Assembly: GCA_964431555.1 (NCBI GenBank)
Contig: CAYSJW010000009.1
Location: 10,413 to 74,412 of the forward strand
Reading direction: 5' to 3'
Length of the DNA: 64,000 nt
Source: an uncultured Gammaproteobacteria bacterium
GTDB lineage: Bacteria > Patescibacteriota > Microgenomatia > UBA8517
Shown here: positions 45,588-64,000 of the stretch, in pieces
Numbering within the stretch: position 1 is the first letter of the stretch
How the letters are laid out: every line of letters starts with the position of its first letter
Position numbers and translations under genes: made by a program
The notes under the pieces: model-generated
Told to the model about the DNA's origin: nothing
Seen by the model: only the letters and a program-made list of their open reading frames with translations
Database searches by the model: none

Positions 45588-48113
45588 CTACCAAAAAATA
45601 CGGGCTTTCAAATCCCCGCTTGGTAAGGCATTATATCTAAAATCTTTATTCTCAGTCAAGCAATCTTTATTATCAGTTTTAAAATCAACCCCATCAGGCA
45701 AATTCAAAAAAAGATCAACGGGATAATTTTTTACTCCAGATTGTTTACTTAAAAATAATCTATATTCACCTTTCTTTTCAAAATCGATTAATAATCTATT
45801 CTCCCAAATAAAAGATATTTTCCTTAATTCGTTAGGCTTTAACTCTAAATATACACCCGCTTCTTTTGTTTTTTTACCTGCAATAATATCAGGAATTAAA
45901 TACTTTTCTTCATCAACAGATTCTACTTTTACTGAAGAAAAACTTGTTTCATTACCGGCAAAAAATCTCAAGTAAACTTTATAATCTTTCTTTCCTGTAT
46001 TCTTAACATAAAAATCAAATCTACCTTTTAACACTTTCTCCTGAAAATAAATGCTCACTTTAGCCATTCTTGAAACAGAAGACGAAACTTCCCCCTCAGA
46101 TGTTTCTATCAAAGAAAAATAATCCAAGAAGCAATTTGCAATACAATCCTCCTTTAATATTTTTTTTTCTAAATCAGTTTTTAAATGATTGTTTCCTAAT
46201 CCTTGATCACTAAAGTAAATTTGGATATCCTTTTGATTAAATCCTTCATATATTTTTTTGATTATTTTTAAACCCTTATCATTTATCAAAATACCCTTAT
46301 TTACTTTATCCATTTCATTAACTAACTCATTTATAAAATTTTGATTTATAAATAATGTTCCATCAATCTTTGTCTTAAACTCCTTATTTATAAAATTAGA
46401 AACATCTAAGGCAGAATATGATATATCAGGATTCCAGTTAAACTTATCAAGGTTGGTATAACTATCTTTAAAATATTTTTTTACAACCACTGGTTTTTCA
46501 AAACTACCTAAAATTTTATTATTTAATTCATATTTGTCTTCAATTAAGAGACTGGCAATAGAAAAATTATGGAGAATAAGAAAAACAAACTTTTCTATTA
46601 CTCCCCCAGTGGGTCTCAAATACGAGTTATCTTGCAAAACTATTAAATACTTTCTTTCTCCTTCATAACCAAGCAATAAAGTTAAATTTTTTAATATATC
46701 TCCAAATTTATAACTTAAATTTTTTAATTTATTTGTTTCCGAATTGTCAAAAATAACAAATTTTCTTAAAATTTCATTATCTTTATCACTTAGGTATTCC
46801 GCTTCTAAGAAACTAATGTCTTCATATAAATCATTCATATCTATACTTATTGAATTTATATCAGAAAAATTCAATCTTTCTTTATTATTAAAAGATTTAA
46901 CAATTAAAATTAATTTTTCTAAAATACTTAAATATTCTCTATACGCTTCTGATTGAAGTTCTAAAACTAATGTGGGTTTTGTAAAAATATTATAATAATT
47001 ATCTAATAAATATATCTGTTTTAAACCATTTGAAATTTTATTAGAACATTTAGAAAAAAATAGTGACATATTTGTTGAGTATTTAGATAAATAAAAAAAA
47101 TCATTTTCATAAAAAAAATTAGATAAGTGTAAAAACGATAGCGATAATAAACATGATCCTACGGGAAATAAAAATAAAAATATAATAATACCTAAAATTA
47201 ATTTACTGGTTTTATCTAATAAAGTTTCTTTTATTTTATTAAAATAATCTTTAACCTTTGTTACAAACCCATCTTTGTATTTTTTTCTTTTTTCTTTATC
47301 TTTAAGTAATTCTTTATATACTCTATTTAATATTATTTTTGGTCTCTTTTTAATTATGATTTCCTCATCATATTTAAAAATGTTAGTATTTCTATTCTTA
47401 ATATTTAACGATTTTATATCAACACCGATAATTTCCACTAATCTATTCAACTTTATTTTTTTACCTATAATAAATACTGCTTTTCCAAAATAACTTATCG
47501 AAAATAATATTTTTATAATTAATGTAACCAAATCTTCATCCAATAAAGGATAAAAAAACTCATTACACCTTAAATTAATGTTTTTGTTTAGAACTATATT
47601 TTTTAAAACTTCATATAAATCACTTATATAAAAATCCTCGTATTTTGGTGTTATTAAATCACTGTAAAATATTACTGCACCAAATGATTTTAATTCTTGA
47701 AATTTCTTATAAATATAATCCTCATCAATACTTTTTAAATTAAAATTATTTAGTCCATTTATCAAAAATGTGGATTTTGTCTTAAAAATTTTATTTATAT
47801 ATTTATATAAATTGATGTTTTTGTTTAAACTTTTTATAAATTTATTTTTGTTCTCATACTCTTTATCTTTAAATTTATTAAAATAAATTAAATAATTTAT
47901 ATTTGTTTTATTTCTGATTAATTCCTTTATATTTTTTATAATATTAACATCATTGTTAGAATAACTATTCATTAAATCTTTTTTATCATTTTTGGTAATT
48001 AAATAAACCTTTAAGTTATAATTCAAAAGGTTCTTAATTAATAATTTGTTAATACTACTAATATCTGAAAATATTAAAATACTATTTTTCTCAGTAATTT
48101 TACTTTGTAACAT
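45588..48113 (-). CDS. Large Asn/Lys/Ile-rich membrane protein (841 aa); C-terminal part DUF4012-like (RPTGG motif), N-terminal degenerate Rossmann-like region
   Basis: Central TM (LILGIIIFLFLFPVGSCLLSLSFL). C-terminal …LQDNSYLRPTGGVIEKFVFL…. N-terminal ILIFSDISSINKLLIKNL…VYLITKND. Encoded in the most AT-rich tract of the window. Confidence 0.4.
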   Translation of the reverse strand: MLQSKITEKNSILIFSDISSINKLLIKNLLNYNLKVYLITKNDKKDLMNSYSNNDVNIIKNIKELIRNKTNINYLIYFNKFKDKEYENKNKFIKSLNKNINLYKYINKIFKTKSTFLINGLNNFNLKSIDEDYIYKKFQELKSFGAVIFYSDLITPKYEDFYISDLYEVLKNIVLNKNINLRCNEFFYPLLDEDLVTLIIKILFSISYFGKAVFIIGKKIKLNRLVEIIGVDIKSLNIKNRNTNIFKYDEEIIIKKRPKIILNRVYKELLKDKEKRKKYKDGFVTKVKDYFNKIKETLLDKTSKLILGIIIFLFLFPVGSCLLSLSFLHLSNFFYENDFFYLSKYSTNMSLFFSKCSNKISNGLKQIYLLDNYYNIFTKPTLVLELQSEAYREYLSILEKLILIVKSFNNKERLNFSDINSISIDMNDLYEDISFLEAEYLSDKDNEILRKFVIFDNSETNKLKNLSYKFGDILKNLTLLLGYEGERKYLIVLQDNSYLRPTGGVIEKFVFLILHNFSIASLLIEDKYELNNKILGSFEKPVVVKKYFKDSYTNLDKFNWNPDISYSALDVSNFINKEFKTKIDGTLFINQNFINELVNEMDKVNKGILINDKGLKIIKKIYEGFNQKDIQIYFSDQGLGNNHLKTDLEKKILKEDCIANCFLDYFSLIETSEGEVSSSVSRMAKVSIYFQEKVLKGRFDFYVKNTGKKDYKVYLRFFAGNETSFSSVKVESVDEEKYLIPDIIAGKKTKEAGVYLELKPNELRKISFIWENRLLIDFEKKGEYRLFLSKQSGVKNYPVDLFLNLPDGVDFKTDNKDCLTENKDFRYNALPSGDLKARIFW

Positions 48114-53504: not shown

Positions 53505-54230
53505 TTAAATAACAAAATATTTAATATTTTTTGTATCTACTCCAATAGCCTCTAGATCGTTCAAAGCTTTATTTAAAATATTTTGTTTTTCTTCTGATGA
53601 AATATTTTGATTATTCAATTTGATTCTAAACGCATTTTGTTCGAAACTATAAACTATAGAATATTCTTCTTTGACGATTGGTAATTTTTTATTCCAGGGA
53701 TACTCTTTATCTGTCTTTTTCTGGGCTTCTCCTACAGTAATGGCGTCTTCAACTAATTGTTTAGTTTGTTGATTGAGTTGGTTAATAGAGAGAGGATTTG
53801 TATAGAAAGAAAAATTATATATAGTTTCTTTGTTATAAAAAACACTTATTGTGTATTTTGTTGAAGTTTTATAAGAAGTTAAATTTTTTATTTTAAGTAG
53901 GGTATTTTTTTCCCATACTTTTTCAAAATCTATTGTGGGATTGAATATTATTTCAATGGAATTTTTTTCGTTATCATTTAAATTTCTGTTAAAAGTAATT
54001 TCTATAATTTGATCATCAAGTACGTATTTTTGATTATTTGAGGGCAAGGTTTTAATTACCTTAATGGTTTGATCGATTATAGTAGGTGTAATATTAATTC
54101 CTTTTTTTGATTCTTCTTTATAGGGTCTTTGTTTTAGGGAGATAAATAAATAAATACCAATAATAAACATAAAAATCCATAAAATTATAAAAAATCTCTT
54201 TCTTTTTAAAATTGATTCAAATATATTCAT
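53505..54230 (-). CDS. Hypothetical membrane-anchored protein (241 aa), last gene of the minus-strand T4SS-like operon; possible VirB8-like bitopic component
   Basis: N-terminal TM (FFIILWIFMFIIGIYLFISL) plus a ~200-aa extracytoplasmic domain. AT-rich like host DNA. VirB8-like assignment is by topology and position only. Confidence 0.35.
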   Translation of the reverse strand: MNIFESILKRKRFFIILWIFMFIIGIYLFISLKQRPYKEESKKGINITPTIIDQTIKVIKTLPSNNQKYVLDDQIIEITFNRNLNDNEKNSIEIIFNPTIDFEKVWEKNTLLKIKNLTSYKTSTKYTISVFYNKETIYNFSFYTNPLSINQLNQQTKQLVEDAITVGEAQKKTDKEYPWNKKLPIVKEEYSIVYSFEQNAFRIKLNNQNISSEEKQNILNKALNDLEAIGVDTKNIKYFVI

Positions 54231-54235
54231 GTATT

Positions 54236-56836
54236 TTATGGTATACCAAAACCCACTACCCTTGCCCAGGAAAGGTTTTCTACCCCGACTCCATCGTTTT
54301 CAAATATTAAGTAACCATCTTTATATCCAGAGTTTGCTTGTACAAAAACTATGGCCTGTTTCTCTATAACATGATGGACAATAGCAACATGATTTGTTCT
54401 TAGTGGCCCACCATATACATAAAAAAATATAATACTTCCGGTAGGTATGTTTTTTGAAGTGGCTTGTGACGCGTCTATAAAACGCCCGTTATTTCTAAAC
54501 CAATTTTCTAGGATATTAGACATATAGTATTCTGGAATTTCATGTCCGGTCTCTTTCCAAGAAATCACTGCCAGTTGTGTACACCAGAAAAGGTTTCTAG
54601 CCTCGTTGGATACTTGATCTCTGGTTGGGTTAGGATTGACTGCGAATAATTCTTCATTGAAAAGTTGAGGATAACTTGGTGGATAATAAATTTCGTCTCT
54701 CGGAAAACCACCCAGTAACTGATTTAATTTTTCTGAATCATCAGGAGATCTGTTCCAGAAACACCAAAATCCCTGATAAAGGTCTGCTGTAATTTCCCAA
54801 GCTCTCTTGGCAATCCCGGTTGCGCCATTATTATCAAAGGAAATAGAACCCTTTTCGTAAGTACATTCGACTGGAAATTGTCCAAACCCTGCAGGAAAAT
54901 CTGCTCTTTCGAAACCACCGAAAGGAACCACAAATGCACTATTGTTAATGATTATTAGAATAAAAATTACCAAAAAAAGAAATGTAATAATACTAATAAT
55001 AACTGGAATACTTATTGTTATTACAATACTTGCAATTACAGCAGATAAAAATGCTGGTATACCAGCTATTACACTTGCAATTGATCTTAAACCCAATGTT
55101 GTTAAAAATATTCCGCCTGAAATAAGTGCAGGAACTACTGAACCTATTGCCAAAAATGCAACCATTGCGATTCCAGAAATTTCTTTAAGTTGCGATTTTA
55201 AATCTTCCTTGCCTGTTATAAACTTAAGTATTCCGCGAAAGATTTTGGTTAAAAACTTTAAAATTTTTGGAAGAATGTCAGTAATTATAGTAATTATAAG
55301 GGCGATGATATTTCCAATAATGGGCACTAAAGTTCCTAAGGCTTGTGCTACTGTTGTAATTCCTGCTTTAGCGGCGATTTTACTTCCTTGTTTGATTAGT
55401 TCTTTGCCGGCCTTTTTTAATGATTCTGTAATGATTTTTTTAGCCGCGTCTTTAGCCACAGATATACCTGTTTTTTCTAAAAGTTTTCCAGCCTTTTCTT
55501 TAACAAAATCAACTCCTTTATCAAAAAGGGGCTTAAGAAATCCATTATCTCCGGTTTGAAGAGAGATCTGGTTGGGTTTTTCTGCAGTTTGCGGAGAATC
55601 GGTGGCGGCAGGCTGTATTGTTATTGATACATTTGGTATTCCTGCTTCTTTCCTGAATGCGTATGCCAATTCGGGATTTGATTTTTGTAAAGTTTTCAGG
55701 ATCCACGCCGAAAGCTGTAAGTCTTTTTCTTGCTGTTGTGTTATTAAATTGTTTTTAGCAACTCGATCGACTTCATTGGAGAATTGTTGAGCGTCAACTC
55801 CCAAAGGTAAAAGGTGTTTTGTTGCAACTTCGGCACTAGCTGATAGTTGTTCCGATGTGGTTCCCGGGGGAATTACCCCTTCGCTTATCAATAACGCTGT
55901 TTCTTCGGGTGTAAAGGAAATTTTACCAGTTCCGTCGATTACTTTTTCCCTGAAATTGATAGTTATCTGGGAAGGTTCGATAGCAGGAATAGTTGGAGTT
56001 GTAGTAATTATAATATTTTGCTGTGTTTCCATAGATTTTGATCTTTTTCTTTGTTTTCTTTCTGCCTTAAGCTGTTTTTCGTCAAGCTCCTCGGCATAAG
56101 CCCTATTTATATTCGACCACCTTTCCTGCCTGATGTTATATTCTTTTATTTCTTCCGGTGTTAATTCATCTTTATCTTTGCCTAGTTGTTGAAGATATCT
56201 TTCAGGGTCATATTTACGCACTTGCACCAAATACGCGGTTCTTAAATCTAGTTGTGTTGCACCGGGGGTTACCCCCAGAAGTTTCCAATTCTCACCGTGA
56301 TTGATCGGCCCGGCTTTTTTGCCTATCCACTTTTTTTGTTTACGGTCGAGCGTGTCTTTCCATTCGTCCTGACGCTTATATCTTAAGTGTTCGTGATAAT
56401 GATCTCTTCTGGTTTCGTCCCCGAGAACCTTGTGGGCTTTTTCTAAATAATAAAGAGTAGTTTTAGCACTTGCGAGACGTTTTTTAATTTCCGATTCGGA
56501 AAGTCCTTGTTCTCTTAGTTTTTTTTCTAAAACATCCGGTTGAAGTGATGCCTTTCTTTTTTTATAAGCTTCTTCGATCTCTTTTTGCGTTGCGTTTTCA
56601 TCTAATCCAAGCAGATCGTAGTAATCAGGCTCTTCGGGAAGTTGTCCGACACTTACAGAGTTGGCCTTACGAAGCCGGGCTTGAAGAACCTCGTATGCCA
56701 ATTCAACGCGCATACCAAGCGGGATTTTGGGATCAATAAGTGCTCCCTCAGAGGTTATTACAAAAGCTCTGGTACACAACTCCTCATAATCAAGATTTTT
56801 AGCCTGTACTAGTAATTTTCTTGCTTCATCACTCAT
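54236..56836 (-). CDS. Multidomain T4SS-associated membrane protein: two degenerate J-domain-like repeats (N-terminal, cytoplasmic) + VirB6/TrbL-like polytopic TM bundle + C-terminal CHAP peptidoglycan hydrolase domain
   Basis: J-like 1: DYYDLLGLDENATQKEIEEAYKKRKASLQPDV…KAHKVLGDETRRDHY (HPD->QPD). J-like 2: NWKLLGVTPGATQLDLRTAYLVQVRKYDPERY. Five or more TM helices (…IIALIITIITDILP…, …ITISIPVIISIITFLFLVIFILII). CHAP motifs NLFWCTQLAV (Cys) and TNHVAIVHHV (His). Confidence 0.6.
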   Translation of the reverse strand: MSDEARKLLVQAKNLDYEELCTRAFVITSEGALIDPKIPLGMRVELAYEVLQARLRKANSVSVGQLPEEPDYYDLLGLDENATQKEIEEAYKKRKASLQPDVLEKKLREQGLSESEIKKRLASAKTTLYYLEKAHKVLGDETRRDHYHEHLRYKRQDEWKDTLDRKQKKWIGKKAGPINHGENWKLLGVTPGATQLDLRTAYLVQVRKYDPERYLQQLGKDKDELTPEEIKEYNIRQERWSNINRAYAEELDEKQLKAERKQRKRSKSMETQQNIIITTTPTIPAIEPSQITINFREKVIDGTGKISFTPEETALLISEGVIPPGTTSEQLSASAEVATKHLLPLGVDAQQFSNEVDRVAKNNLITQQQEKDLQLSAWILKTLQKSNPELAYAFRKEAGIPNVSITIQPAATDSPQTAEKPNQISLQTGDNGFLKPLFDKGVDFVKEKAGKLLEKTGISVAKDAAKKIITESLKKAGKELIKQGSKIAAKAGITTVAQALGTLVPIIGNIIALIITIITDILPKILKFLTKIFRGILKFITGKEDLKSQLKEISGIAMVAFLAIGSVVPALISGGIFLTTLGLRSIASVIAGIPAFLSAVIASIVITISIPVIISIITFLFLVIFILIIINNSAFVVPFGGFERADFPAGFGQFPVECTYEKGSISFDNNGATGIAKRAWEITADLYQGFWCFWNRSPDDSEKLNQLLGGFPRDEIYYPPSYPQLFNEELFAVNPNPTRDQVSNEARNLFWCTQLAVISWKETGHEIPEYYMSNILENWFRNNGRFIDASQATSKNIPTGSIIFFYVYGGPLRTNHVAIVHHVIEKQAIVFVQANSGYKDGYLIFENDGVGVENLSWARVVGFGIP

Positions 56837-56860: not shown

Positions 56861-58783
56861 TCATTTGTTTTCTTGGATGATTTTCAGCGTTGTTCTTAAT
56901 GGAATATTTGATTGTTCGACCAACTCTTGTGGTTTGGTTGTTATCAATTTATGTTCTTCGGGAGAAGCAACTACAGTTATGGGTGCATGATTATTGCCGG
57001 CAAAAAAAATACCCTCTCCAATGTTTGCTCCAAGTAAAAGCTGTCTTTCACCTTGTGAGAGGTAAAATACATCGCCAACCTTGTCTATAGCGGCAGGAGA
57101 TTGCTTTAGAAGAACCCTTAAAGCACTATTTGTAACAATTGCCTTGCCAATATCTTGGTTTAGAAAATCTTCAACGTCCTGGGTGATTGTAGTGAGTCCT
57201 AGATAATATTTTCTTGCGCGTTTAACAATACTCCACAAAAACTGAGCTGAATCTGAAAACCTCATCATATGCCACGCCTCATCAACAACCAAAAGTCTGG
57301 GTCTAAGATTTTTCTTGATTCTGGTCCAGATAAAATCCAGAATAACAAACATAGCAATTGGTCTTAAGGCATCTTGGAGCTCCCGTACGGAAAAAACAGT
57401 AAAGGGGTTGTTTATTTCAATATTTGTTTGTTTGTCAAAAATTCCCACAAAGCTTCCTCTGACAAATTTTTCAATTCTTGCTGCCAAATCTAATGCGTCA
57501 GGAGTTTCCATTCCGATAAGTATTTTATAAAGATCTTCCATTAAGGGAGGTTCTTTGGTTTGGGTTTCAGGATCTTGAGTAATCCCCTTGGATTTATAGG
57601 TTGCAACTAAAGCCCTGTCAAGAAGAGCCTCTTGTATTGGAGTTATTTGTCCCATGATGACTTTAAAAAGGGAATGTAAAGAAAGAATTTTAAGGCCAAG
57701 GTTGTTTTCACCCTCTTCATAGACTTGGGAAAGATCAAAAGGGTTAATTTTTGATGGAGAGTTGAAAGAAAATGAAATATTTACCCCTCCTACCGCGTTG
57801 GCTAGGTTTTTATACTCACCTTCAGGATCGATTATGATTATTTCTGTCCCAAGCATTAATGATCTTAAACTTTCCAATTTGACAAAGTAGCTTTTACCTG
57901 CGCCTGAAGTTGCAAAAACAGTCATGTTGGAATTTTCCAGTGAGAATCGGTCGAAGATGATAAAGGATCCGTTTTGGGTGTTTATCCCATATAGAACTCC
58001 TTTATCAGCAGATAACTCCGCACTGGTTAGGGGAAAAGTCGTGGCCAAAGATGATGTATCCATATTTCTGGTTATGGAAAGACGATCTAACCCAAAAGGG
58101 GAGGTTGATAAAAGACCATTGTCCATATCTAAGGTGGCGTGTTTAGCTACAACTAAAAGAGAACCAAGCGTTGCCTCAACCTGCTTGGTAATATGGTTTA
58201 ATTGCTCTAGATCAGAAGCTCTGATGGTGATATAAAAACCAAATTCAAAAAAGTGTTCGGCTCCCTTAACAAGTTCTTCTTGGAAAAGTCTTGCATCTTC
58301 AAGTTTAGCCTCGGTTGCAGGATCAACTATTTTTCCTCTTTCAATGTCGGTGGCGATTTCAGCTTCCATTTCGGCAACCTTTCTCATAAGATCATCTAAA
58401 ACGCTTTTACCTTCAACGGGGTATATAAAAAATGAGATATCCAAAGAACTATTGAAGTTGATTATTTGCTCTAACCAGCCTGGAGATACAAAGCGCGGAT
58501 ATCCAGAAACAAAAAGAGTTCTAAGGTATACATTATTGATTTTTAGATAGTCCATTTCAATTTCTACCATTTGTGGTGCTACAACATCGAGTATGTTGAG
58601 ATTTTGAGAATTAACCGCCTCAACGGGATTAATTATTTTCGGTTTGTCGACTATTACTTGTTTAGCCTTATCTGAATTTAAAGCATCTTTCTCTTTGAGA
58701 GTTTTTTCTTTACTTTGGGTAGAATCTTTTGGAAGATTGTTAATTGTTTTTGTTTTTGGTTTAAAAAAATTAAGTTTTAACAT
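56861..58783 (-). CDS. VirB4/TraC/TrbE-family type IV secretion ATPase (main body)
   Basis: Walker A VFATSGAGKSYFVK, Walker B LLVVDEAWHMM, Arg finger/sensor region. N-terminal YLRTLFVSGYPRFVSPGWL typical of Gram-positive VirB4 (PrgJ/TcpF-like). Confidence 0.75.
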   Translation of the reverse strand: MLKLNFFKPKTKTINNLPKDSTQSKEKTLKEKDALNSDKAKQVIVDKPKIINPVEAVNSQNLNILDVVAPQMVEIEMDYLKINNVYLRTLFVSGYPRFVSPGWLEQIINFNSSLDISFFIYPVEGKSVLDDLMRKVAEMEAEIATDIERGKIVDPATEAKLEDARLFQEELVKGAEHFFEFGFYITIRASDLEQLNHITKQVEATLGSLLVVAKHATLDMDNGLLSTSPFGLDRLSITRNMDTSSLATTFPLTSAELSADKGVLYGINTQNGSFIIFDRFSLENSNMTVFATSGAGKSYFVKLESLRSLMLGTEIIIIDPEGEYKNLANAVGGVNISFSFNSPSKINPFDLSQVYEEGENNLGLKILSLHSLFKVIMGQITPIQEALLDRALVATYKSKGITQDPETQTKEPPLMEDLYKILIGMETPDALDLAARIEKFVRGSFVGIFDKQTNIEINNPFTVFSVRELQDALRPIAMFVILDFIWTRIKKNLRPRLLVVDEAWHMMRFSDSAQFLWSIVKRARKYYLGLTTITQDVEDFLNQDIGKAIVTNSALRVLLKQSPAAIDKVGDVFYLSQGERQLLLGANIGEGIFFAGNNHAPITVVASPEEHKLITTKPQELVEQSNIPLRTTLKIIQENK

Positions 58784-58785
58784 AG

Positions 58786-59460
58786 TTAAACATTAAAAAG
58801 TTCCTTCTCCTTTATAGGTGGTTCGGGATTGTATGTTTGATAAAAAAGATTAATAAGTTCATCGTTATTAAGTTGGTGTAGAGATATTCCTAATCGTCCA
58901 GCCTGTCTTATTAGATGGTCTCTTTTGGGAAAGAGTGAAATTTTTGCTTTTCTAACCACGTATGATTTAGGGTAGGGAAGCTTAGGGTTTTTTCCGCCTG
59001 AAGGAAGAAAGGACGAAGATAAAGATTTTGAAATCCCCAATTCATATGGACTAAACGGTATTACAATGTAAAATTTTTTAGATAGTACATTTCTCTTTTT
59101 GATTGCATCCTGTACAAAATTCATGTAGTCATCCATTATGTTTTTAAGCTTTTGGTTTTTTATTTTTTGACTAGCATTGGTTAAGAATTCCATGTAAGTT
59201 GATATATCTTTTTTTTCGCTTCTGACAACTATTTGGACGGGAAAATTAAAAGAGTTTAAAAGACCAGCGTATGAAGCGATAACTGCTTTTTGTTCCCTTT
59301 CATTAAGAAGTCCGAAATTAAGAGAAGTTGATTCCATGATTAAAGCTGCACCTCCATTTTTATAAATAACAATGTTGTCTGTAATATCTGCAATAGGAAT
59401 TAATTCTTGGGTTGATGCTGTTAGTGGTTTGTCGGGTTTAGAGATAAACGGTATGGGCAT
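58786..59460 (-). CDS. VirB4 N-terminal-like domain protein (possible detached N-terminal part of a split VirB4, or adaptor)
   Basis: LIPIADITDNIVIYKNGGAALIMESTSLNF…NEREQKAVIASYAGLLNSFNFPVQIVVRSEK resembles the TrbE/VirB4 N-terminus (LPYA.L.DDGIVL.KDGSLL…E.N.L.RR.NQAL…). Stop TAA is separated from the VirB4 ATG by only 2 nt, in a different frame. Confidence 0.4.
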   Translation of the reverse strand: MPIPFISKPDKPLTASTQELIPIADITDNIVIYKNGGAALIMESTSLNFGLLNEREQKAVIASYAGLLNSFNFPVQIVVRSEKKDISTYMEFLTNASQKIKNQKLKNIMDDYMNFVQDAIKKRNVLSKKFYIVIPFSPYELGISKSLSSSFLPSGGKNPKLPYPKSYVVRKAKISLFPKRDHLIRQAGRLGISLHQLNNDELINLFYQTYNPEPPIKEKELFNV

Positions 59461-59526: not shown

Positions 59527-60516
59527 CTAATTATTAACCTTTTCCTTTCCGGTAATCACAATTGGTGGTATTATTTTGCCTAAAGCACTGATATTTATTG
59601 GTTCAAATAAAAAGCCCTCTTTTTCTGTAATTATTTGATAATTGCCGTTTACTAAGGGGGTAACTATCATAAAATGACCTAATTTGTTGCTTCTTAATGC
59701 CCTTGCGGGCCTTCCGTTGGAATCACGAATCTCAAGTATGGCGTTTTCGATAATTTTTCCGTTAGTATCTTGTACCTGACCGACAATAATGTTTGGTTTG
59801 GATGGTGGAAGTGGAGGAGCGGCTTCAGAGGAAAATTGGGCTTGTTTAATATCTTTGTAGATACGGCCTTCTGAAGGCGTTAGTTTGAATCCGGTCGAAG
59901 GAACCTTTTCCGCTTTATCTGGAAGAGTTTGTTGAGTTTCCTTTTTTGGTTGGGGCTTTATTTTTATAGCTTCGGTTTTGGGAAATTGAATACCACGTCT
60001 GTCATACGTAATTCCCTTATCGGCTAGATCAACTTTATTGGTTGGGATGTATGCTAATTCTGAAAAGCTATTATTTATATTTTGCAATATTTGGCTTTCC
60101 TGCGTCTCTAATTTTGCTTGTTCATCTGAGGTTTTCATGATGGCAAGCAATTGAGGAGAGGTTTTTTTATTATCCTCTGCTTGTGTACTTGTTTCGGGTT
60201 GGAAGTAGCTGAAATTATCAGGAAGTTTTTTCCAAACATAAAGGGTAGGGGAGTAAATTGCTTTAAAAAAAAGAACAATCCATTTTGCCAAAGGTCTATC
60301 TTCTAAAGGGAAAAAAGCGAGCGCAATTCCCATTACAAAGGAAAAGATGATTAAAGGCCATTTGATATAAGAAGGTAAACCTGAAGAATAAATTAGAAGA
60401 GCAATTAAAGCCCCACCAGCAACCTGAAAAAATTGTTGTAAGGTCATATCACCAACCAGTTTAAACTGGTAAGATGATACCTGTTGTGGAATTGGATGTT
60501 GTTCTTCAATTTCCAT
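59527..60516 (-). CDS. PrgI/VirB3-like two-TM protein with C-terminal carboxypeptidase-regulatory-like (beta-sandwich) domain
   Basis: YQFKLVGDMTLQQFFQVAGGALIALLIY + second TM (PrgI-family pattern). C-terminal IIVGQVQDTNGKIIENAILEIRDSNGRPARALRSNKLGHFMIV…GNYQIITEKEGF. Confidence 0.45.
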   Translation of the reverse strand: MEIEEQHPIPQQVSSYQFKLVGDMTLQQFFQVAGGALIALLIYSSGLPSYIKWPLIIFSFVMGIALAFFPLEDRPLAKWIVLFFKAIYSPTLYVWKKLPDNFSYFQPETSTQAEDNKKTSPQLLAIMKTSDEQAKLETQESQILQNINNSFSELAYIPTNKVDLADKGITYDRRGIQFPKTEAIKIKPQPKKETQQTLPDKAEKVPSTGFKLTPSEGRIYKDIKQAQFSSEAAPPLPPSKPNIIVGQVQDTNGKIIENAILEIRDSNGRPARALRSNKLGHFMIVTPLVNGNYQIITEKEGFLFEPINISALGKIIPPIVITGKEKVNN

Positions 60517-60938: not shown

Positions 60939-63422
60939 ATGACAAATTCAGAAAGAGTAGGCGATAGTGGTTCGGGGAGTTCAAGAGGAAAAGAGGGAAG
61001 CAGAAAAAAGGGGGGAAAAGGAACGAAAGAGGGAGAAAAGAATAAAAAAGTTGGTGGTGGGGAAGTTGGGTCGCAAAATAAACCCGAATCTCCAGACCGT
61101 GGTGAATTAGGTGTTCCAGTGACAAGAAAAGAAGATTTAAAAGATCAACCTGATGATTCTACAGAGGCAAGACTGTTAAGAAGAATTTTAGGGGAAACAA
61201 TATCGTTTAGAAAGCAAATGAAAACTCAACTTGAAGAAATTAGATCTACAATCTCTTCGCAAACAACCGCAATAAACCAATTACTTGAGAGGCTTGCTAA
61301 AGCCGCAAGTCCTGCTGATGAACAAGTGTTGATGAAGACGATTGATGCAATGGAGAAAAAGCTTGTAGAAAGCGTTGAGGGATTCAGCAATGTATTAGAT
61401 AAAGTAAACGCCTCAATTAATCAGGAACAGCAAATTTTTGAAGAGAACAGGGAAATGATAGCGCTATTTATGAGGGAACTTGAAAGAATGCAAGAAGCTC
61501 AAGGTATTACGGAAAGTCTTAGGATCCCTTCCCTTGATAGAATGGCAGCGAGGCTAAAAGGAGACTTTAAAGAAGAGTATGAAAAATCTAGAAAAGTAGG
61601 AGATAAAGATTGGACCGTAGAGAATGAAATATATCAGAATATGGTAGAGGATTGGTTTGAGGAACACATCAGAGCTATGGAATCAAGCGAGCTTGCATTT
61701 GAAGAACAACCAGATATGTACAGATACCTTTCGCTTTATGCGAGCAACTTTGCAAAAACTGAAGGGATGAAAGATTTTGGAGAGAGGATTCAGGCAAAAC
61801 TTGAAGCAAGAAGAATACGACATCGCGCAGTGAGAGTTTTGAGCATGTCTCCGCCAGATGCTATTGTTAATGTAATGCAAAATTTTAAAGTACAGGAAAT
61901 GTCGAATTTTTTTAGGGGAGAGGTTGTTGGATCCTATTCCATAGATAAGGCAACCGGAACAAGGGCTAGGGGTACTGATGGCGAAGTTGTTGTAATTAAC
62001 CATGTCGAAAGGGAGCTTAGAAACTACGAGAGGATGATGAGAATATTAAGGGAAAGAAGAGATGAATACAGAAAAAAGTACTTAGAAGAAGAAGAAAGGA
62101 TGAAAAAACGCTTAGGTGTTAGGGTATTGGATTATGGGCAAAGAGTTAAACTGCAAAATAACCCTGAATTAAAGAGGTTGAGTGAAGAAATAAAAGTTAA
62201 GGAAAAATATATTGTAGATTATTACACTTATGGTGGCCACATAGAGGATGAAGGAATTGATGGAGCCTATGTTGATGAAGAAGGCAACCTGCAGGATAGA
62301 TGGAACGAAGAGTTAGGTAGTCAAAGTAATGATAATAGAGATGGGTTTTTTTACAGGCTTGGAACTGATAGACCTCCAGAAAGGCAAGGTAGAAAAATTG
62401 AATCTTATGGGGTAGAAGATTTGGTTAAGAGTCATATAAGAGAAGGGAAGGATCCTGTGTCACGAGATAAAGAAATTGAACTTAGAGATAAATTTTGGGC
62501 AAGAAGGTATGCAGGAGGGACTTTAAGTTTGATGTTTAGAATTAGTCGTGAAGTGCAAATAAACGGGACTGCGGACTTTTATTTAAATAGAATATACAAT
62601 TTTGGAGATAAAGTTGCAGAAAACTTTTTACTAAGGCACACGAGAGAGATATGGGATCCTACAGAGGGTGTATATAAGGGAGATCAGATAAGCCTTGGTT
62701 ATATTGACATAATGTCAGACATGCTTTCAAAAGCGAAAGAAAACCAACTTAAGAGAGTTGGTATCAATAAAAAAAGGGAAGATCATAATGGAGCGTTTTT
62801 AAGTTTTGAAAATTTAGATTGGGGGAGCAAAGAGCTTTGGGATGATTTAATACAGGGAGAGCTTGCTGTTAACCCCGCTACGCCTTCAGTAAAGGGGCAG
62901 TATGTTGCAGAGGCTGACGGATCAGGAAGAAAACCCATGTGGGGTCCTGATAGTTTATTACACGGGCCGACTGTAGAAAAAACAGCAATATTTGAACATA
63001 TGGGAGGCTGGCTTGGTACAGGGCCAGCCGAACCTTTCTGTTTACCTGGTTCAAATGAGCCAATTGAGGTTTCAAAACAGGAAAAATTTCAAATCGAAAT
63101 AATGGATAGAATGCTTAATTATTTGAGATCCGATGAAGCCAAAGATCAGTTGGGTGATCCAATAATAGGCTATTCGGAAAAAGCGACAATTTGTGAATGG
63201 ATTAATTCATGGGTAAGGCACGGAATGATAGATAGTAAAGTAAGTAAAGTATTATTTGAGAAATATTTAGGAACTAGTAACAAAACCCTTCTAAGAATAA
63301 TAAGCACATCAGATATAATTTGGAATGATCTTAAAAATAATTGGGGAACGATGTCTTTGCAGGGAATCGGAGAATTTATAAAAAGATTATTTGGTTATAT
63401 TTTTGCAGATGAGTTCAGATGA
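60939..63422 (+). CDS. Large (827 aa) highly charged soluble protein with Gly/Ser/Lys-rich N-terminus and extensive predicted coiled coils; hypothetical, island-associated
   Basis: ORF track. No TM and no NTP-binding motifs found by eye. Divergent from the T4SS-like operon. Codon composition matches the GC-richer island. Confidence 0.5.
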   Translation: MTNSERVGDSGSGSSRGKEGSRKKGGKGTKEGEKNKKVGGGEVGSQNKPESPDRGELGVPVTRKEDLKDQPDDSTEARLLRRILGETISFRKQMKTQLEEIRSTISSQTTAINQLLERLAKAASPADEQVLMKTIDAMEKKLVESVEGFSNVLDKVNASINQEQQIFEENREMIALFMRELERMQEAQGITESLRIPSLDRMAARLKGDFKEEYEKSRKVGDKDWTVENEIYQNMVEDWFEEHIRAMESSELAFEEQPDMYRYLSLYASNFAKTEGMKDFGERIQAKLEARRIRHRAVRVLSMSPPDAIVNVMQNFKVQEMSNFFRGEVVGSYSIDKATGTRARGTDGEVVVINHVERELRNYERMMRILRERRDEYRKKYLEEEERMKKRLGVRVLDYGQRVKLQNNPELKRLSEEIKVKEKYIVDYYTYGGHIEDEGIDGAYVDEEGNLQDRWNEELGSQSNDNRDGFFYRLGTDRPPERQGRKIESYGVEDLVKSHIREGKDPVSRDKEIELRDKFWARRYAGGTLSLMFRISREVQINGTADFYLNRIYNFGDKVAENFLLRHTREIWDPTEGVYKGDQISLGYIDIMSDMLSKAKENQLKRVGINKKREDHNGAFLSFENLDWGSKELWDDLIQGELAVNPATPSVKGQYVAEADGSGRKPMWGPDSLLHGPTVEKTAIFEHMGGWLGTGPAEPFCLPGSNEPIEVSKQEKFQIEIMDRMLNYLRSDEAKDQLGDPIIGYSEKATICEWINSWVRHGMIDSKVSKVLFEKYLGTSNKTLLRIISTSDIIWNDLKNNWGTMSLQGIGEFIKRLFGYIFADEFR

Positions 63423-63449: not shown

Positions 63450-64000
63450 TTATTTTCCTCCAAAGCGCGGTAGTTTTATTCCGGTCATTGCACCTCTTAC
63501 AGCTTCAGTTAGCCTTCCTGCCCTTTCTTTATAATACGCTTCTTTAGCGTAACTTATTGTTTGACCAAACGGCGACCAGAGAGTTCCAGCCGCAGCGCCA
63601 AATGCTGCTCCGATTGCGGTTCCGTAGCCAAAGGGTTTGCCTGCTACTGCGCTTTTAATCATGTCAGCTATTTTTGGAATAAGAGTCATTACTATGACGC
63701 TGGCAATAAGCCAAACAAGATCTAAGTTTTTTCCGAATGGAACGAATGGTGGAAGCCAAGGCGAATTATCTAGTAGATTTGCTTTTGGATCGAAAGGTAT
63801 AGTATTAGAAAATAGATCTGATAGAGGTCCACTAGGTAGTGCTGAAGCTAAAAAGACAAAAGAAATTGCAAGCATGGGACCTATAGTTGCAAAGACAGCT
63901 AGATTGCTGGATATGTTTTTTATCCATTTTACAAAACCTCCGGTAATTATAAATACAGGCCCAGCGATAATTAAAAGGAGTATTGTTATGTAAGTTTTAA
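63450..64000 (-). CDS. Polytopic membrane protein, partial (N-terminus beyond window); possible TrbL/VirB6-like or other T4SS membrane component
   Basis: ORF track gives 63450..63875. The frame stays open upstream to the window end (…YITILLLIIAGPVFIITGGFVKWIKNISSNLAVFATIGP-M…). Gly/Ala-rich C-terminal segment GYGTAIGAAFGAAAGTLW. Confidence 0.4.
   Translation of the reverse strand, partial: KTYITILLLIIAGPVFIITGGFVKWIKNISSNLAVFATIGPMLAISFVFLASALPSGPLSDLFSNTIPFDPKANLLDNSPWLPPFVPFGKNLDLVWLIASVIVMTLIPKIADMIKSAVAGKPFGYGTAIGAAFGAAAGTLWSPFGQTISYAKEAYYKERAGRLTEAVRGAMTGIKLPRFGGK

Follow-up and report, generated by a model that had tools for sequence, protein, structure and literature searches.

The VirB1 homologues of Gram-positive type IV secretion systems (T4SSs) are all membrane-anchored proteins with extracellular enzymatic domains, and most of them possess an intracellular domain as well (PMC12857230). 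Among them, PrgK, TraG of pIP501 and Orf14 of Tn916 combine an anchor with extracellular LytM, SLT, muramidase or CHAP/NlpC-P60 domains (PMC12857230). T4SSs are widespread in Patescibacteria, where they lie next to the replication origin, usually without a relaxase and a nearby coupling protein (PMC12102498, PMC10633639). The coupling protein is seldom encoded near virB4 in this phylum and is non-essential in Candidatus Southlakia epibionticum. In this species, the one tested, the T4SS is essential for epibiotic growth (PMC10633639); in its strain ML1 (Saccharimonadia), the peptidase and lysozyme genes found directly downstream of virB4 are essential too (PMC12102498). Here we describe a gene for a protein of 866 amino acids (aa) that fills the slot directly downstream of virB4 in a 64,000-nucleotide (nt) stretch of Microgenomatia DNA (hereafter the window; assembly GCA_964431555.1, contig CAYSJW010000009.1, positions 10,413 to 74,412 of the forward strand).

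In our opinion, this protein is probably a membrane-anchored cell-wall hydrolase subunit of a Microgenomatia/Woesebacteria-type T4SS, the cytoplasmic J module of which has degenerated in this copy and would recruit DnaK in those relatives in which the His-Pro-Asp (HPD) motif is intact. By analogy, it would be the functional counterpart of VirB1, PrgK, TraG of pIP501 and Orf14 of Tn916. What is new here is a T4SS cell-wall hydrolase with an undescribed cytoplasmic J or J-like module. Searches of open-access full text and of supplementary text of the Patescibacteria T4SS survey revealed no J-domain described on a T4SS component or on a cell-wall hydrolase; such an absence is not proof, but it agrees with the sequence-only reading, an earlier annotation made from the DNA letters, in which the architecture was called undescribed.

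In the mechanism we propose, the first ~490 aa would be cytoplasmic, three or four hydrophobic segments would carry the chain across the membrane, and the peptidase, placed outside, would cut peptide stems or cross-links of peptidoglycan locally, which would let the secretion channel or pilus pass the wall. In HPD-bearing relatives, the most likely role of the J module is to bring ATP-bound DnaK to the cytoplasmic side of the machine, where the chaperone could serve in substrate handling, in assembly or in control of the hydrolase. In the copy described here, the J folds are probably unable to stimulate DnaK and may be kept as a scaffold or regulator, like Tim16/Pam16, because the first J-like domain (J1) carries a classic null substitution and the second (J2) has lost both the His and the Asp.

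The protein differs from PrgK (pCF10), TraG (pIP501), Orf14 (Tn916) and the Tn916-like CD630_03720 (PDB 4hpe) in having no SLT, muramidase or LytM domain. Its anchor consists of several hydrophobic segments with an invariant exit motif, its cytoplasmic part of ~490 aa comprises two J-like domains and a domain without a relative among solved structures, and the class of the peptidase is swappable across its family. The ML1 genes belong to the same phylum and take the same position relative to virB4 in an essential, origin-near T4SS cluster (PMC12102498, PMC10633639); we liken them to the 866-aa gene by position only, and a J-domain is not mentioned for them in either source.

The locus and its relatives

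The open reading frame (ORF) extends over exactly 54236-56836 on the minus strand, the coordinates given in the sequence-only reading; it starts with ATG, is preceded by an AGGA ribosome-binding site, and its identical product is encoded on three metagenome contigs. Its start lies 24 nt behind the stop of virB4 on the same strand, and its end is separated from the next gene by 5 nt. The VirB4 ATPase (56861..58783, minus) is of the CD1110 family (NCBIfam conju_CD1110, 376 bits against a cut-off of 325; Pfam P-loop_TraG). Upstream of it are encoded a TrsD/TraC-like protein related to the N-terminal part of VirB4 (58786..59460, minus; NCBIfam TrsD and VirB4 N-terminal matches, PF26593 TraC-like) and a PrgI/VirB3-like membrane protein with a C-terminal CarboxypepD_reg-like domain (59527..60516, minus; Pfam PrgI E 8.6e-5, CarboxypepD_reg E 1.6e-5), which is conserved in all related loci. 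The last gene of the operon (53505..54230, minus) encodes 241 aa with an N-terminal membrane anchor and a weak Ig-like (Big_5) match, as judged from Pfam and from a comparison of neighbour positions; downstream of it follow dnaN and then dnaA on the opposite strand. The operon is composed of prgI, trsD, virB4, the 866-aa gene and the small gene, adjoining dnaN/dnaA, and the locus is a chromosomal, origin-adjacent, MPF-FATA-like T4SS as described for Patescibacteria (PMC12102498). Membership in a Gram-positive-type T4SS, which the sequence-only reading had proposed, is borne out by the prgI–trsD–virB4 operon.

Two samples of relatives were compared. The first, for synteny, comprises 47 loci obtained by a pattern scan with one genome per species (L numbers), nearly all from Woesebacteria, Microgenomates or unclassified Patescibacteria; the Patescibacteria-type locus suggests that the Gammaproteobacteria and Alphaproteobacteria titles of some of these metagenome-assembled genomes are mislabels. 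As far as the contigs reach, the order PrgI, TrsD, VirB4, large protein with a late transmembrane (TM) region, small anchored protein, dnaN, dnaA is found in 47 of 47 loci. The large protein after VirB4 measures 500-2012 aa in the related loci and has its membrane block late in the chain. This slot always holds a membrane-anchored protein, the outer domain of which is of the M23, CHAP-like, M14 or amidase class; Pfam matches among the 46 positional homologues are to Peptidase_M23 (18), CHAP (3, best E 5.6e-6), Amidase_2 (1) and DnaJ (4). The longest versions, of ~1900-2000 aa, carry a cytoplasmic extension of ~1600 aa before the membrane block (L020:3474-9512, L028:3411-9164, L033:3438-9188), and the C-terminus of the L020 protein consists of DUF7507 and Peptidase_M23.

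The second sample comes from an exhaustive HMMER search against 1.84 billion representatives, which returned 303 relatives at E<=1e-3, 75 of them at E<=1e-30; the best 150 of the 303 were dissected for domains (representatives with P numbers). A word-indexed homologue search with the full protein, its C-terminal 224 aa or its N-terminal 492 aa gave the self-hit only or nothing. About 100 of the 150 representatives share the membrane block and the C-terminal domain, most of these with unrelated N-termini; the cytoplasmic middle domain is common to 43. N-terminal J-domains, one or two, are present in 25 membrane-bearing representatives and always precede the middle domain. Degenerate J-like regions, used as seeds for iterative searches aimed at hidden J-domains in the J-less majority, did not enlarge the set, which after iteration stands at 27 of the 150 representatives (including one fragment and one J-only protein without a TM block) plus four ORFs from the loci. 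J-bearing members end in Peptidase_M23 (P0005, P0006, P0110, P0117, P0127, P0141, L012), in Peptidase_M14 (P0118) or in a CHAP-like domain (the 866-aa protein, P0008, P0025), and the remaining ones have C-terminal domains without a Pfam match. J-bearing versions occupy the exact slot after virB4 in L007 (tandem J), L009 (single J with HPD) and L012 (J with M23). The fusion of J-domain, TM block and peptidase recurs in relatives and is not a single case. The J module is confined to a sub-branch of the family and is made up of one or two J-domains and a family-specific alpha/beta domain.

Peptidase and membrane block

The C-terminal domain (aa 741-866; 54239..54616, minus) is recognized by its fold and by invariant residues as a papain-like cysteine peptidase domain of the NlpC/P60–CHAP type. 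In the full-length AlphaFold2 model, calculated from a 20-sequence alignment, the mean predicted local distance difference test (pLDDT) score is 70, and the C-terminal domain reaches 87-96; it is predicted to adopt a papain-like alpha+beta fold that matches CHAP and NlpC/P60 enzymes. Foldseek against the PDB retrieved the CHAP enzymes Gsp amidase (3a30) and PlyPy (5udm), with E-values that are weak because the query is long. Family conservation points to C752 (54581-54583), H816 (54389-54391) and N835 (54332-54334), all on the minus strand, as catalytic candidates: of the 110 members that have the C-terminal domain, 109 carry C752 and all 110 carry H816 and N835. C752 is the Cys of NLFWCTQLAV and H816 the first His of NHVAIVHHV, so that the two motifs picked out as CHAP-like in the sequence-only reading coincide with nearly invariant residues of the family.

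A papain-like fold, a Cys, a His and a polar third residue are shared with the CHAP (PF05257) and NlpC/P60 (C40) peptidases, which include E. coli Gsp amidase, B. subtilis LytE and CwlO, and the phage lysins PlyPy and LysGH15. Unlike in these enzymes, to which sequence similarity is marginal, a helical sub-domain with Cys residues that is specific to the family (aa 646-740; 54617..54901, minus) stands before the peptidase; it is modelled with low to medium pLDDT and is conserved together with the peptidase domain in ~100 representatives. Its C658 is conserved in at least 90% of members and its C692 in 89 of 110. The two residues fit an extracellular location and could form a C658–C692 disulfide.

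The membrane block (aa 493-632; 54941..55360, minus) is delimited by hydropathy and charge bias. Family-averaged hydropathy reveals four hydrophobic stretches, at 493-520 (weaker and containing Gly and Pro), 553-580, 585-611 and 612-632; accordingly, the at least five TM helices counted in the sequence-only reading reduce to three or four hydrophobic segments. The stretch 493-520 is flanked on both sides by Lys-rich sequence with eight Lys and Arg residues each, and the region past the last stretch is acidic. In 78 members, the mean net charge is +3.8 in a 40-residue window ~175 aa before the exit motif, roughly the pre-membrane flank, versus -1.4 in the 30 residues after that motif. The positive-inside rule, together with this charge bias across the 78 members, favours an N-in/C-out topology with three true passes, in which the first segment would not fully cross the membrane. 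Domain order and charge bias likewise support the earlier notion that a cytoplasmic J-type module is joined through the membrane block to an extracellular CHAP-type hydrolase.

The last helix ends at its outer side in the motif INNSAFVVP (aa 630-638; 54923..54949, minus), the most conserved motif of the positional family, with the consensus FIINSGAYVVPP in L002-L048. In the alignment of the 46 positional homologues, which has a mean column identity of 13%, the only invariant columns are I630, N631, A634, V637 and P638; it should be noted that the strongest conservation is found in this exit motif and not in the enzymatic residues. The motif might mark a site for release of the hydrolase domain, or it might be a docking site. 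It also loosely fits the small-x-small pattern of a signal-peptidase site.

Toward the N-terminus, the membrane block is preceded by Lys-rich amphipathic helices (aa 441-492; 55361..55516, minus), modelled at 440-456 and 460-482, with eight Lys and Arg residues in the last 30 positions. Before these lies the family-specific middle domain, a cytoplasmic alpha/beta domain in the AlphaFold2 model (aa 270-440; 55517..56029, minus; pLDDT 78-93). This confidently modelled domain matched no solved structure, and aa 269-490 have no Pfam family.

The J-like domains

Pfam DnaJ (PF00226), with a gathering cut-off of 27.8 bits, scores 43.4 bits on the whole 866-aa protein, which agrees with the J-domain assignment made from the sequence alone. 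The domains were also scanned singly. J1 (aa 69-150; 56387..56632, minus) then scores 41.1 bits over profile positions 1-62 of 63, and J2 (aa 183-262; 56051..56290, minus) scores 20 bits (E 7e-4) over positions 3-34, under the cut-off; of the two J-repeats proposed earlier, the former is upheld and the latter is weaker than had been stated. Compared with the second J-domain of four relatives (P0002, P0003, P0005 and P0006), J2 nevertheless proves homologous, with E-values of 1e-15 to 1e-22. It is credible as a J-domain because this homologous repeat is a clear HPD J-domain in the relatives and because its modelled helix pattern is that of J1. AlphaFold2 predicts the four-helix J fold (helices I-IV, of which II and III make a hairpin) with a pLDDT of 87-90 for J1 and 82-89 for J2. 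Foldseek against the PDB matched J-domains at a probability of 1.00, with target TM-scores of 0.87 (2och) and 0.82 (5nro_B, a J-domain bound to DnaK).

The HPD tripeptide, which in J-domains lies in the loop that connects helices II and III, is absent from both repeats. Alignments to T. thermophilus DnaJ2, human DNAJA1 and E. coli DnaJ place Q99-P100-D101 (56534..56542, minus) at the HPD position of J1. In J2 this position is taken by D210-P211-E212 (56201..56209, minus), as seen in a gap-free alignment with the second J-domains of relatives, where the motif is HPD in P0003, P0005, P0006, P0010 and P0106 and HRD in P0002; in this alignment, KYDPERYLQQLGK of the 866-aa protein stands against ELHPDAFLAQLGK of P0005. 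The sequence-only reading was right that both motifs are altered and misplaced the second, which it gave as YDP. By this feature, both repeats are J-like rather than canonical J-domains. The description of the module as DnaK-recruiting-like in the sequence-only reading has to be qualified, since this copy has lost both HPD motifs and only relatives possess intact ones.

The HPD state of the family was assessed by aligning all of its J-domains to E. coli DnaJ. Fifteen proteins have a canonical HPD, namely ten single-J members and, in their second J-domain, P0003, P0005, P0006 and P0010, counting P0129; near-canonical motifs occur in P0002 (HRD), P0089 (HSD), P0121 (HPN) and P0127 (HVD). The first J-domain of the closest tandem-J relatives is degenerate (QTD, QPD, DTN, EIL, and NLD in L007), and the Gln at the His position recurs there (QPD in P0006; QTD in P0002, P0003 and P0106). 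Because this Gln recurs among relatives that are less than 50% identical, the comparison of sequences suggests that the degenerate first J-domain is kept by selection, a situation like that of a Tim16-type protein paired with a canonical J-domain. In the three members that join J-domains to a CHAP-like domain, a small sample, HPD is missing throughout (QPD and DPE in the 866-aa protein, NAD, NRE). The H33Q substitution, the equivalent of the Gln in J1, left none of the tested J-domain chimeras functional in vivo, and ATP-dependent BiP binding was lost as well (PMC1906734).

Many J-domains of the family, HPD-intact and degenerate alike, have an insertion directly after the motif, and both repeats of the 866-aa protein are predicted to form an extra short helix there. 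The insertion has the consensus LExxLRxQGLSxxEI in domains of the J1 type and YLxQLGK...TPEEIK in those of the J2 type, and it sets apart a J-domain subtype of its own that is linked to the T4SS hydrolase family. The J-like pair is preceded by a cytoplasmic helical region (aa 1-64; 56645..56836, minus) that has no Pfam match, is modelled with low confidence as three helices and is conserved in P0002, P0003, P0005, P0117 and P0139.

Among characterized J-proteins, a parallel in bacteria is DjlA, which has an N-terminal membrane anchor, a C-terminal J-domain with an intact HPD and no extracellular enzyme. The likeness lies in a bacterial J-domain tethered by a TM anchor at the cytoplasmic face of the membrane, and only the J-domain itself matches (NCBIfam PRK09430, E 0.039). 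The pairing of J1 and J2 recalls Tim14(Pam18) and Tim16(Pam16) of the mitochondrial TIM23 import motor, and also Sec63. Unlike these, the J-like pair resides in one polypeptide, is bacterial and cytoplasmic, and is degenerate in both members; the likeness to Tim14/Tim16 is architectural only and implies neither shared ancestry beyond the J fold nor membership in that family.

Alternative readings, neighbouring genes and significance

Several observations weigh against a wall hydrolase of the T4SS. The Pfam CHAP family scores 22.9 bits on the whole protein and 25.8 bits on the C-terminal region alone, just under its cut-off of 26, which makes this part of the earlier CHAP assignment borderline. 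No significant CHAP or NlpC/P60 match was found among PDB sequences by phmmer with the C-terminal region or by hmmsearch with a 27-sequence family profile. A tblastn search of the C-terminal domain against 72,556 plasmids likewise gave no match, and known conjugative hydrolases are therefore not linked to it by sequence. Pfam detects no SLT or muramidase glycosidase domain in the 866-aa protein, whereas PrgK and TraG have one. The membrane region is poorly modelled, and four true passes would place the C-terminus inside the cell, contradicting a hydrolase role. Hsp70 signature motifs are found neither in the window nor in 745 kb of related loci and flanks. Finally, vertical inheritance inside a single bacterial class, and not functional coupling, could account for part of the conserved gene order.

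The last point bears on the view that the gene encodes a general autolysin or cell-division hydrolase which merely sits beside T4SS genes near the origin and has no link to secretion. The whole dnaA/dnaN-adjacent region is indeed syntenic in the class, so that order alone is no proof of coupling, and M23 and NlpC/P60 enzymes are common as division hydrolases. We nonetheless consider this view very unlikely: the gene is part of the prgI–virB4 operon, on the same strand and with gaps of 24 and 5 nt, a hydrolase of this kind is characteristic of Gram-positive T4SS operons (PMC12857230), and the Saccharimonadia peptidase and lysozyme genes directly after virB4 are essential together with the T4SS (PMC12102498). 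The peptidase could also be imagined as an offensive effector that attacks the peptidoglycan of the epibiont's host after release, for example by cleavage at an INSGA|YVVP exit motif. Such cleavage is pure conjecture; moreover, this is an integral membrane protein whose place in the core operon is the same in all 47 loci, no immunity-type partner was identified, and membrane-anchored hydrolases of the same plan are standard in Gram-positive T4SSs (PMC12857230), all of which makes an effector improbable.

As for the J-like pair, this copy might still work with DnaK despite the loss of HPD and recruit Hsp70 as its HPD-bearing relatives would. J1 keeps the Pro-Asp and a basic helix-II face (AYKKRK), and the Gln shared with several relatives below 50% identity suggests selection over decay. 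The null phenotype of H33Q in every chimera tested and the accompanying loss of ATP-dependent BiP binding (PMC1906734), the change of both His and Asp in J2 (DPE), and the lack of HPD in three of three J + CHAP-like members make this decidedly improbable. The sequence-only reading had described a three-way fusion, in which the membrane bundle would be the VirB6 channel subunit, the C-terminus VirB1 and the N-terminus a working DnaK recruiter. VirB6 homologues are scarce in Microgenomatia (PMC12102498), which leaves the role formally open, and the membrane block with its exit motif is the most conserved part of the positional family. However, the segments are fewer than the five or more membrane helices of such a subunit, and the poorly modelled block gave no VirB6 fold match. 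At E<=1, no TrbL/VirB6/PrgH-type family of Pfam or NCBIfam matched the whole protein, and the membrane block alone matches no Pfam family at E<=0.1. Its only long loop (521-552) is Lys/Arg-rich, with eight positive charges, and is thus predicted to be cytoplasmic instead of forming a large extracytoplasmic loop. We do not regard the protein as a VirB6–VirB1 fusion and give the three-way arrangement very little credence. A membrane-anchored wall hydrolase of the T4SS, as proposed at the outset, is the reading we retain.

A better VirB6 candidate for Microgenomatia than the 866-aa membrane block is a 555-aa polytopic protein encoded on the minus strand at the edge of the window (63450-64000, continuing as L001:1721-3388; the last 141 codons lie at 63450-63875 of the window). 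It has an N-terminal signal or anchor, an outer domain of ~190 aa and then many TM helices and has no Pfam match; several related loci encode a homologue upstream of their T4SS genes. Upstream of it and outside the window, L001:44-1666 encodes a secreted protein rich in Cys, for which the gene call on the contig gives 928 aa. Its C-terminal stretch (GVNPAFALTIWLNESG...) resembles lytic transglycosylase/lysozyme-type motifs by eye and has no Pfam match; judging from this resemblance, the product could be the source of the glycan-cleaving activity that the 866-aa protein lacks.

At the other end of the operon, a small anchored protein of 150-350 aa is found downstream in every locus that reaches that far, and these proteins belong to at least two unrelated sequence families. 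The 241-aa protein could correspond to the VirB8-like component that spans the wall and that Patescibacteria are reported to lack. VirB4 itself is enlarged to 1177-1349 aa in some Woesebacteria (L003:3004-6537, L013:3244-7293, L030:3628-7203, L039:1730-5326). The Pfam intein scan, which covered L003 and L013, identified in both an intein (Intein_splicing and a LAGLIDADG homing endonuclease) inside the P-loop ATPase domain; in L030 and L039 the VirB4 homology is split likewise. Divergent from the T4SS operon, the window encodes an apparently cytoplasmic, Glu/Lys/Arg-rich protein of 827 aa (60939-63422, plus), which has no Pfam match and is conserved at the same position in L005, L007 and L009. 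The G+C content falls to 20.5% at 46001-48000, inside an 841-aa ORF (45588-48113, minus), compared with 30-38% elsewhere in the window.

The J module of this family is a hint that this secretion system and Hsp70 chaperones work together. It is conceivable, if rather unlikely, that the T4SS of this family uses its own tethered J/J-like pair to dock DnaK at the cytoplasmic mouth of the channel, making Hsp70 a part of the machine, either as a motor of the unfolding or ratchet type or as a receptor for substrates in place of the coupling protein. This would parallel Tim14/Tim16 on TIM23 or Sec63 with BiP, and HPD-less copies would then represent a Tim16-like regulatory form.

The wall-hydrolase slot of these systems is a chassis in which the peptidase class can be exchanged among M23, CHAP-like, M14 and amidase. 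In the gene described here the J-domains are degenerate, so its own contribution is probably structural or regulatory. For the family, which includes at least 25 representative clusters with J-domains, most of them HPD-intact, a J-domain on a core-operon subunit is the first sequence-level hint of a physical coupling between Hsp70 and a T4SS.

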